DNA of 64,000 nucleotides from Candidatus Poribacteria bacterium. Its GTDB lineage: Bacteria; Poribacteria; WGA-4E; PCPOR2b. Positions 51,207 through 52,535 of the stretch are shown here, piece after piece. Position numbers and translations under genes: made by a program. The first letter of the stretch is position 1, and every line of letters begins with the position of its first letter. The stretch is from positions 992,001 through 1,056,000 of the forward strand of contig OY762266.1 of NCBI GenBank assembly GCA_963665285.1, given 5' to 3'. The notes under the pieces were generated by a model. It ran no database searches. It saw only the letters and a list, made by a program, of their open reading frames with translations, and was not told the origin of the DNA.

Positions 51207-52535
51207 ATGAAACGTTTCACATCGGTTCTAACCATTACCATCCTTTTCTTAGTGACGGGACTCTGTTTTGGCCACGGCGACCGGGAAGTCGCGGAAGACC
51301 AAGAGACAGTCAAATCCACAGGATTCTGGATTTACAACGATCTCAATCAAGGTTTCGCCGAAGCCCAAAAGACAGGTAAACCGTTACTCGTTGTCTTCCG
51401 CTGAGTGCCGTGAGTGAGCTGCAAAGGCTTCGACGAACAGGTTGTTCGTCACGATAAAAGAATTAGCGAATTGATGGAACAGTTCGTCCGTGTCCGAATT
51501 ATTCAGGGCAATGGGATGGATTTATCGCTCTTCCAATTTGATTATGACCTAACATTCGCTGCGTTCTTCCTTAATGCCGACAGGACCATCTACGGACGCT
51601 TCGGCACACGGTCAAACTTTGAAAATGCGGCGAAAGACATCTCCCTCCAAGGATTCAGGAAAGCCCTCGAAGGCGCCCTCGAACTCCACAGAGATTACCC
51701 TGCAAACAAGGAATTGCTAGCAGGCAAAACCGGACCGGAACCACAGAAAAAAGTACCAGAAGCCTATCCGGCACTGCTGCGATATACCGCTCAACTAAAT
51801 TTCAACGACCGTATAAATGCGCAGTGCATCCACTGCCATCAGGTCGGGCAAGCACAGCGAGAGGTCTACTGGTACGAACGGAAGCCGGTTCCCGATCACG
51901 TGCTGTATCCATTTCCACTGCCAAGCGTTTTGGGATTGACGTTTTCGCCCAATCATCCGGCGAAGATTCGCAACATCGCCCCTGGCTCATCGGCAGAGAA
52001 GGACGGTTTTCGTAGTGCCGATGAACTCCTGACCCTTAATGGCCAACCAATCCTCTCCATTGCAGACATACAGTGGATTCTACACCGCGCCCCCTCGACA
52101 GGTTCACTGCCCGCGAAAATTAACCGACGTGGACAAGAGATCGATTTGAGAATCACACTCAACGACGGATGGCGGCAGGGAAGCGATATCTCTTGGCGCA
52201 CGACGACACAAGAGTTGCGCCTCGTCGCCCTCGGCGGCATGACCCTGCAGAATCTTTCTGAGGTTGACCGTCAGCGTAGAGGGATTAGTGAAACAGAGAT
52301 GGGGCTGAGAGTTGGGAGTATCAATCGTGCTGGACGGCGCGGTGGACAGACCAATGCAGCCAAAGCAGGGATTCAACGGGGTGATGTCATTGTCGCATTC
52401 GGCGATCGAACGCAACGGCTAACGGAAAGTGGCATTATCGGTTATGTGCTTCAGGTACGTCCGGAAGCGAAGGCACTGCCTATAGTCGTTTTGCGAGATG
52501 GCAAACAGATGGAGTTCCAACTGTCGTTGGAATAG
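51207..52535 (+). CDS. Exported thioredoxin-like/PDZ protein with two in-frame UGA codons (candidate Sec66 and Sec69)
   Basis: ORFs 51207-51404 and 51414-52535 share a frame and join as KPLLVVFR-U-VP-U-VSCKGF at the thioredoxin CxxC position. Also CIHCH and two PDZ-like domains. Confidence 0.85.
51432..51450 (+). promoter_or_regulatory. Candidate bacterial SECIS hairpin
   Basis: GACGAACA-GGT-TGTTCGTC; apical loop begins with G, 26 nt after the second UGA and 35 nt after the first. Confidence 0.7.

Follow-up and report, generated by a model that had tools for sequence, protein, structure and literature searches.

Bacterial selenocysteine insertion sequence (SECIS) elements follow a consensus that comprises a 4-16 bp stem, a 3-9 nt loop with a G in its first two bases, that G being followed by G or U, a location 16-37 nt from the UGA codon and a folding energy of -7.5 kcal/mol or lower (PMC13188914); in E. 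coli fdhF, the upper stem lies 11 nt from the UGA (PMC8659212). For family NF041199, the Trx7/PDZ domain-containing (seleno)proteins, a CxxU motif with one selenocysteine (Sec, U) has been tabulated (PMC13188914, 2026), and the same family has been catalogued with CxxU as 'PDZ domain-containing protein' (PMC9312934). A CxxU 'putative secreted serine protease MucD', listed together with UxxU Prx-like 2 sequences (PMC2398784), probably represents this family, as judged by table order rather than by sequence comparison. Bacterial UxxU motifs and single-SECIS decoding have previously been proposed for other families: UxxU was given for three of them (PMC13188914), and in UXXU hydrogenases both codons were proposed to be decoded from a single SECIS, with 'additional factors' being expected (PMC13582414, 2026).

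The present analysis concerns a 64,000-nt stretch of DNA from a Candidatus Poribacteria bacterium (contig OY762266.1, positions 992,001 to 1,056,000; the window, whose numbering is used throughout), in which a gene at 51207-52535 on the + strand encodes an NF041199 protein with UGA at both positions of its CxxC-type motif. Both UGAs were judged with high confidence to be read as Sec. The favoured reading, considered moderately probable, is that the gene is intact and that both residues are decoded from a single SECIS, likely with help from a small hairpin in the spacer between the second UGA and the SECIS.

The 442-codon frame ran from ATG at 51207 to a terminal TAG at 52533-52535, with in-frame TGA at codons 66 (51402-51404) and 69 (51411-51413) and no further stop in between, and placed the motif R-U-V-P-U-V-S-C directly after the strand KPLLVVFR. 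An earlier note on this DNA, made from the letters alone, had recognized two in-frame UGAs at the CxxC position after this strand and a frame continuing to 442 aa, and both observations were confirmed. A standard open reading frame (ORF) scan returned as its sole frame a 373-aa protein from GTG 51414. The read-through protein scored 395.8 bits against NF041199 (cut-off 300), covered profile positions 1-389 of 390 and showed all membership traits of the family, namely the score, an N-terminal Thioredoxin_7 with C-terminal PDZ domains, and Sec at the second motif position; TGA at codon 66 departed from the CxxU tabulated for the family. The gene was present as a single copy, with no paralog over cut-off in the genome, and its nearest five named loci were all from Candidatus Poribacteria (84-89% identity).

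Catalogued CxxU members of NF041199 have the same domains, second-position Sec and SECIS position as the query gene, which differs from them by UGA at both positions and by a spacer hairpin that is mostly missing in CxxU loci. The locus resembles the UXXU hydrogenases (PMC13582414) in that its two UGAs lie three codons from each other, a single downstream SECIS has been kept as in the CXXU form and the distribution is mosaic. In the hydrogenases, which are rare (16 sequences), the residues are Ni ligands rather than a thioredoxin motif, a UXXC form exists that was seen in none of the NF041199 loci, tRNA-ReC, not seen in the query genome, is common, and no helper hairpin appears in the covered text. 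The Prx-like thiol:disulfide oxidoreductase, the NF041115 metal-binding protein and the FmdB family share UxxU with the query; Prx-like and SelL proteins also share its thioredoxin-like fold, and UxxU in such a fold is a trait that the query has in common with SelL-like diselenide proteins. SelL, which contains a diselenide, showed no family-level homology to the query (SelL-related NF040769, 16.4 bits vs a cut-off of 120), although the two may act in a similar way. To our knowledge, neither SelL nor the other bacterial UxxU families carry a PDZ pair or a CxxCH motif. Literature searches, mainly of open-access main texts, yielded no description of UxxU in NF041199 or of a helper hairpin; the double-Sec form is not listed for this family in the catalogues, and the NCBIfam model comment may mention UxxU.

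The features of the gene, by position in the window, were:
51192-51196, + strand: Shine-Dalgarno-like AGGAG, 10 nt 5' of the ATG (read from the sequence)
51207-52535, + strand: Trx7/PDZ selenoprotein gene, 442 aa if both TGA codons encode Sec (frame, NF041199, AlphaFold2 model)
51207-51275, + strand: likely signal peptide, approximately residues 1-23, with a basic start and a hydrophobic core (inspection only)
51327-51578, + strand: thioredoxin-like domain, Pfam Thioredoxin_7 (PF13899), residues 41-124, the fold extending to approximately residue 173 (Pfam, structure)
51402-51404, + strand: first TGA, codon 66, first position of the CxPC-type motif, putative Sec (frame, homologs)
51411-51413, + strand: second TGA, codon 69, putative Sec, at the position catalogued as CxxU (frame, reviews)
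51416-51430, + strand: spacer ('helper') hairpin with a 5-bp stem and a 5-nt loop at 51421-51425 (predicted fold, link to UxxU)
51432-51450, + strand: upper stem-loop of the bacterial SECIS, 8 bp, with loop GGT at 51440-51442 (fold, conservation, covariation)
51825-51839, + strand: C-I-H-C-H (CxxCH), residues 207-211, possible c-type heme attachment site (conservation)
51927-52157, + strand: PDZ domain 1, residues 241-317 (Pfam, structure)
52224-52532, + strand: PDZ domain 2, approximately residues 340-442 (profile, structure)

Conservation of the two codons was analysed in 261 distinct homologous loci, pooled from the phylum of the window, from Planctomycetota, from the best 80 of 557 metagenome matches and from named loci. 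UxxU was found in 125, CxxU in 61, CxxC in 75 and UxxC in none, the first UGA thus being seen only on top of the second. In these counts Sec forms are over-sampled, as all listed one- and two-TGA Planctomycetota matches were included but no-stop matches only from the first 30 loci, and as 25 Planctomycetota matches fell outside the listing. Of 176 genomes of the phylum to which the window belongs, 50 contained the family, as did 133 of 401 sampled genomes of the planctomycete phylum. Among the listed Planctomycetota matches, two-TGA loci were all UxxU (73/73) and one-TGA loci all CxxU (42/42), and the 73 UxxU loci ruled out that this form is specific to Poribacteria. In alignment A2, the first position was Cys in all 62 rows that had a residue there, one of them being the query read as Cys. 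A FastTree tree of 254 proteins was built with motif, spacer and SECIS residues masked and with 7 short loci left out, as in the smaller tree (261 to 254 and 135 to 128 loci, respectively); on it, the UxxU label changed 27 times, with at least 20 changes forced by well-supported branches, and the tree did not give the direction of gain or loss. In a hand-chosen set of Planctomycetota genomes, selB was present in 19 of 20 with two-TGA loci vs 3 of 20 with no-stop loci.

This distribution bears on a broken or split gene, or a sequencing error, as an explanation of the TGA codons. A peptide would then end at 51404 and a 373-aa PDZ protein would restart at GTG 51414, an arrangement with which the sizes of the best database matches agree: 94 of the best 95 have 314-375 aa, the remaining one has 383 aa, and all 95 lack a Trx7 match. 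It is contradicted by the conservation of both TGA codons at the two Cys positions across two phyla, by the occurrence of GTG or ATG after the second UGA in just 17 of 125 UxxU loci, and by the loss of the signal peptide and the cut through the thioredoxin fold that a restart would entail. Furthermore, public contigs carry the same codons. A contig of run X1, which possibly represents the window's source sample, was identical to 51150-51453 with no differing letter, and contigs of runs X6 and X8, from two other studies, span the region with neither TGA altered among the variants listed. The broken-gene reading is largely refuted and was considered hardly credible. Names such as 'peptidase' and 'serine protease Do' in databases are misleading, because the protease domain is absent.

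In the same data, the DNA at 51402-51453 was far more conserved than the remaining gene, contigs of other strains being aligned there alone, and summed depth rose three- to thirteen-fold over this interval in all four runs. Two RNA runs, in which 7-8% of words were found, mostly from a relative's gene and as contigs, were not used as evidence of expression.

Genes for selenocysteine synthesis and insertion were detected in the genome. SelA, selB and selD scored over cut-off, selD itself carrying one in-frame TGA, and selA, selB and tRNA-Sec lay side by side at C1:1112918-1116462. One Rfam tRNA-Sec match exceeded the cut-off when 150 of 628 candidates were scored; a second 'tRNA-Sec' called by ARAGORN at low threshold (C1:2119050-2119138) was set aside as it had no Rfam match. 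A crude genome-wide scan for further UxxU genes gave approximately 50 frames, none of them convincing by eye.

The tRNA complement also bears on the idea that Cys is inserted at one of the UGAs, most probably the first, either by a tRNA-ReC-type tRNA or by near-cognate read-through, which would give a CxxU-like protein. In the covered text of PMC13582414, tRNA-ReC is reported from approximately 56% of UXXU-hydrogenase genomes, with a warning on this point, and 11 of 30 other UxxU genomes gave additional hits of lower score with the tRNA-Sec model (47-51 bits), which may include such tRNAs. The query genome had one tRNA with a TCA anticodon at default threshold, one tRNA-Cys of ordinary length and the single tRNA-Sec match, and 18 of the 30 UxxU genomes likewise had a single tRNA-Sec match. 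Repeated gain of a UGA that merely restores Cys would also bring no clear benefit. Reading of one UGA as Cys was therefore regarded as very improbable.

The hairpin at 51432-51450 agreed with the SECIS consensus in all respects: an 8-bp stem, a 3-nt loop (GGT) with a leading G, a loop start 35 nt after UGA66 and 26 nt after UGA69, and a folding energy of -10.2 kcal/mol in a 25-nt stretch. A loop led by G and located 25-26 nt past the second codon, on a stem of at least 5 bp, was present in 119 of 125 UxxU and 55 of 61 CxxU loci vs 1 of 75 CxxC loci, and 70 of 71 Sec loci in the first set had a CAGGTTG/CAGTTGG core at this place. Across 40 UxxU rows, 99.1% of stem cells were paired and 13 had changed on both sides; none of 500 shuffles reached the covariation score, and slid registers paired at 58% or less. 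Pairing and covariation were similar in 17 CxxU rows. When folded alone, the SECIS was not striking against dinucleotide shuffles (z 0.12 to -1.86, six stretches), and the support for it therefore derives from conservation and covariation rather than from single-sequence folding. Since UxxU and CxxU loci have the SECIS at the same place, it apparently stayed put for the second codon, the first UGA being added 9 nt farther away. A distance of 35 nt is long for this host, because most other Sec candidates of the genome have a predicted loop 16-21 nt from the UGA.

These results bore out most of the earlier note, which had described a single hairpin with a G-starting loop 35 and 26 nt downstream and had read the gene as a UxxU selenoprotein with both Sec residues from one SECIS. 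The loop and its spacings were as described, and decoding from one SECIS fits the one conserved element at the same place as in CxxU relatives. The UxxU reading withstood the three refuting conditions that the note had named: homologs have Cys at both UGA positions (the 75 CxxC loci and the 62 rows of A2), selA, selB, selD and one tRNA-Sec (selC) are in the genome, and public contigs agree with the window on both codons. The hairpin, for which the note had proposed a covariation test, covaries. Its 'single hairpin' stood as regards one conserved SECIS, but a second, smaller hairpin in the spacer at 51416-51430 had been overlooked.

The 18 nt that separate UGA69 from the SECIS were predicted to fold into this 5-bp hairpin (-4.1 kcal/mol; pair probabilities 0.68-0.96 in context), which begins 11 nt after UGA66, ends 1 nt before the SECIS stem and spans the Cys72 codon. 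In the first (Poribacteria) set, distinct spacers folded at -2.5 kcal/mol or lower in 26 of 26 UxxU, 6 of 15 CxxU and 13 of 59 CxxC cases. This cut-off, fixed on the first set, was then applied to Planctomycetota loci gathered later, and 47 of 54 UxxU vs 12 of 35 CxxU spacers reached it, at the same GC content (0.58 and 0.59, respectively) and the same synonymous-null energy (-2.1). In downstream control windows of the Planctomycetota loci, UxxU and CxxU were alike. Over all loci, 81 of 88 UxxU, 23 of 57 CxxU and 15 of 69 CxxC distinct spacers reached the cut-off, and at least three expected pairs in a 60-nt context were found in 88 of 122 UxxU, 5 of 60 CxxU and 7 of 74 CxxC loci.

Association of the hairpin with the first UGA was also observed when relatedness was taken into account. 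In 19 phylogenetically independent pairs on supported branches, the in-context trait followed UxxU in 11.2, opposed it in 0.1 and tied in 7.8 (median p 0.001, range to 0.02), while a downstream control window gave p 1. Swapping of 3' arms among the 88 UxxU spacers raised the mean energy from -5.06 to -2.35, with 0 of 200 swaps as low; among CxxU spacers, 12 of 200 were as low. The arms of the spacer are matched to each other in UxxU, and not in CxxU. The UxxU paralog had the more stable spacer in 15 of 16 genomes that contain both forms, three of which are closely related. Association of the spacer hairpin with the first UGA is thus well supported statistically, on the basis of predicted folds. 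It was not claimed that a classical lower stem formed by CxxU loci is exchanged in UxxU loci for the spacer hairpin, as pairing of the spacer with its 3' side occurred in 50 of 60 CxxU but also in 44 of 74 CxxC loci.

The position of the small hairpin suggests how it may act. The ribosome covers approximately 9-11 nt downstream of its A-site codon. When UGA66 occupies the A site, the hairpin of 15 nt would start 11 nt downstream, at approximately the ribosome edge, and could fold outside it; the SECIS loop would then be approximately 22-23 nt away instead of 35 nt, close to the working 26 nt. The hairpin may also slow the ribosome and counter release. Three codons on, its 5' arm would be in the mRNA channel and the hairpin would melt, so that UGA69 could use the ancestral 26-nt spacing while a second SelB-Sec-tRNA complex loads on the same SECIS.

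The main rival to such spacer shortening is a tandem arrangement in which UGA66 has a minimal SECIS of its own, the small hairpin, to which SelB would bind, and the large one serves UGA69. In all 81 folded UxxU spacers, the hairpin started 9-12 nt and its loop 13-17 nt after the first UGA, and 70 of the 81 had a G within the first two loop bases. In the query, the loop lies 16 nt after UGA66, like the SECIS of selD (17 nt) and of a Prx-like candidate (16 nt) of the same genome, and the 5-nt loop, 5-bp stem and leading G agree with the consensus. The energy of -4.1 kcal/mol does not reach the -7.5 kcal/mol of the consensus and the loop opens with G-C, for which reasons the hairpin was not classed as a SECIS. 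In addition, the loops are mostly GC-led, unlike the consensus G-G/G-U, the core sequence of the main SECIS is missing from them, and their G is supplied by the conserved Cys72 codon: in 5 of 9 UxxU spacers without Cys72, the leading G was gone from the predicted loop. A second, minimal SECIS was considered improbable.

Several observations weigh against a helper element of any kind. The spacing of 35 nt is already within the published range of 16-37 nt (PMC13188914), so a helper may be unneeded. The spacer hairpin is weak and its register shifts among homologs; fixed-register covariation was absent in 40 UxxU Poribacteria rows (238 of 500 shuffles paired equally well and 489 covaried to the same degree) and RNAalifold did not predict the hairpin from these rows, as its register moves by one to two bases. 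Fewer than three expected pairs were found in context in 34 of 122 UxxU loci, and the 23 CxxU spacers mentioned above fold as well alone. Independent pairs scored by energy alone gave weaker results (median p 0.012, 0.006 and 0.039 at three cut-offs, with ranges that reach 0.23-0.55), the pairs tests depend on a FastTree tree with long branches, relatedness among rows inflates the shuffle and arm-swap tests, and genome G553 showed the reverse trend between its paralog spacers. Much of this would be expected if one SECIS served both UGAs unaided, with the spacer hairpin as a by-product of codon or amino-acid choice; in the covered text of PMC13582414, single-SECIS decoding of UXXU hydrogenases is proposed without such an element. 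A by-product, though, is at odds with four tests, on independent pairs, arm swaps, the synonymous null and paralogs within a genome, each of which links the hairpin to the first UGA, and unaided decoding was considered quite improbable. Decoding from a single SECIS with likely help from the spacer hairpin accordingly remained the preferred reading.

Further variation was seen among paralogs. Three genomes (G070, G071 and G072) have four paralogs each, mixing two-, one- and no-TGA forms. Tandem UxxU Trx7/PDZ pairs occur in two planctomycete genomes (L247 and L266 on G387:C242; L259 and L265 on G443:C9), and each pair has one strong (-6.0) and one weak (-1.4) spacer. A divergent CxxU paralog clade in Poribacteria (L065, L068 and L069) has Gly at the third motif position, and these loci and the planctomycete L278 have C-x-E-C-H in place of C-x-H-C-H.

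The predicted structure provided indications of function. An AlphaFold2 model, calculated from 147 sequences with Cys for Sec, had a mean pLDDT (predicted local distance difference test) of 95.2 and a pTM (predicted template modelling score) of 0.92. In VIA-align, residues 36-173 matched thioredoxin folds, for example 3f9u_B (Z 9.6, root-mean-square deviation (rmsd) 2.6 over 117 residues), and residues 230-327 and 340-442 matched PDZ domains. A helix was modelled at residues 2-17, and similar N-termini were seen in 8 of 8 loci compared, one of which was the query gene. Foldseek and the PDB sequence search gave solely PDZ matches among the rows listed (HtrA, RseP, syntenin etc.). PDZ domains of HtrA/DegP/DegQ and MamP align with the query, the matches being limited to the PDZ part. 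MamP is a PDZ protein with small c-type heme domains. It aligned (4jj0_A) with Z 10.9 and rmsd 3.3 over 93 residues, the CxxCH region of the query remaining unaligned. Unlike the HtrA/DegP/MucD proteases, the query lacks a trypsin-like domain and has a thioredoxin fold as its N-terminal half; its matches to these families fell in residues 240-441, far under cut-off.

The earlier note had also pointed to PDZ domains and to a CIHCH motif that might bind heme, and both sequence features were found. CxxCH was kept in 256 of 257 loci long enough to include it, never with Sec, and in the 147 alignment rows C207 was present in 140, C210 in 141 and H211 in 141. The genome holds three cytochrome c assembly genes (PF01578) over cut-off. 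No cytochrome fold was among the 50 VIA-align rows listed, in which residues 174-229 were barely covered, and Pfam gave no match for residues 162-243. The chance that heme c is attached at CxxCH was put at a little better than even. The two HtrA-type PDZ domains suggest capture of exported protein substrates, and U-x-P-U at the active-site position of a thioredoxin makes a diselenide/selenol cycle its natural reading. Taken together, the product is probably an exported selenol/thiol oxidoreductase in which the PDZ pair would hold substrate proteins, U-x-P-U would cycle via a diselenide and CxxCH would carry an electron-passing heme c.

A different function was considered for the motif, independent of how the codons are decoded: U66, U69 and C72 may form a site for binding or sensing a metal or Fe-S cluster rather than a catalytic diselenide. 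Two observations would fit such a site. The third position was Cys in 227 of 242 loci, and no Pro preceded the strand 117-122 in any of the 33 rows of alignment A1. Thioredoxins usually carry a cis-proline just before the equivalent strand. In 82 of 119 rows, position 95 is an additional Cys, which would also suit a metal site. Conversely, the motif is placed where the active site of a thioredoxin normally lies and has Pro as its third residue in most members, C72 is missing from 15 of the 242 loci, the query has Arg at position 95, and exchange of Cys for Sec is usually a sign of catalytic redox thiols. A metal site was considered unlikely, though not negligible, and the oxidoreductase reading was retained, with the diselenide, the heme c and the export of the protein as predictions from sequence.

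Promoter and terminator searches at the gene gave no signal above chance. Gene context was uninformative: in 265 loci, 129 of them of at least 4 kb, a downstream O-methyltransferase occurred in 18 and other neighbours in 10 or fewer.

The genome (G000) contains other likely selenoprotein genes (L169, L171, L173, L174 and L175, near G000:C1 positions 6064133, 3436939, 1865464, 4486722 and 3412641, respectively). These comprise three Prx-like proteins, one of them fused to carboxypeptidase-regulatory repeats and one with a possible second, Sec-ended repeat, a DUF3179 protein of a catalogued family and a thioredoxin-TPR protein. A gene resembling cobalamin-independent methionine synthase (PF01717; L172:254-1366, - strand; G000:C1:1671853-1672965), outside the window and just upstream of selD, has an in-frame TGA in H-L-U-R-G-N and a GGT-loop hairpin 19 nt downstream; at this position we presume a Cys that acts as zinc ligand. 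An internal TGA was present in all 22 matching genomes among 41 searched, at the same codon in 12 of 12 loci. Neither 'methionine synthase' nor PF01717 appears in the covered text of PMC13188914, a literature search gave no relevant result, and the gene possibly represents an uncatalogued selenoprotein family. A small DUF5069 protein (PF16798; L170:329-697, + strand; near G000:C1 3597777) likewise has an in-frame TGA, in Y-P-U-P, with a hairpin 19 nt downstream; the covered text of PMC13188914 makes no mention of DUF5069.

Elsewhere in the window, the following features were observed:
43298-45133, + strand: exported protein of 611 aa that has an extended tract rich in Asp and His, two Planctomycete cytochrome C domains and FlgD-Ig at its C-terminus
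48821-49951, + strand: RNA-guided endonuclease TnpB family gene (NF040570, 230.8 bits vs cut-off 100), not beside the Trx7/PDZ gene in other loci
54897-55459, - strand: two small adjacent ORFs, which we take to resemble EutN/CcmL microcompartment vertex proteins, adjoining an NtrC-like regulator and a sensor kinase
57000-57824, - strand: ORF of 274 aa containing a coiled-coil repeat in tandem (EESEQR..EFRQE) and, at the C-terminus, a nuclease-like motif

How one distance-bound bacterial SECIS serves two codons is a question raised for UXXU hydrogenases in PMC13582414. NF041199 offers more than 100 naturally occurring genes with two UGAs, together with matched relatives that have one UGA or Cys alone, and its spacer hairpin is a concrete 15-nt candidate element that is open to reporters with synonymous changes. 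If confirmed, the arrangement would provide a design rule for placing two close selenocysteines in recombinant proteins. As UxxU outnumbers CxxU by 73 to 42 among the listed Planctomycetota matches, catalogues and gene calls for Poribacteria and Planctomycetota undercount the double form. In its most general form, the proposal remains tentative: a collapsible spacer hairpin may be a second mRNA element for double Sec insertion, gained or lost with the extra UGA many times in this family, and its product may be a widespread exported diselenide enzyme, wired to heme c, that has been misfiled as truncated 'peptidases'.

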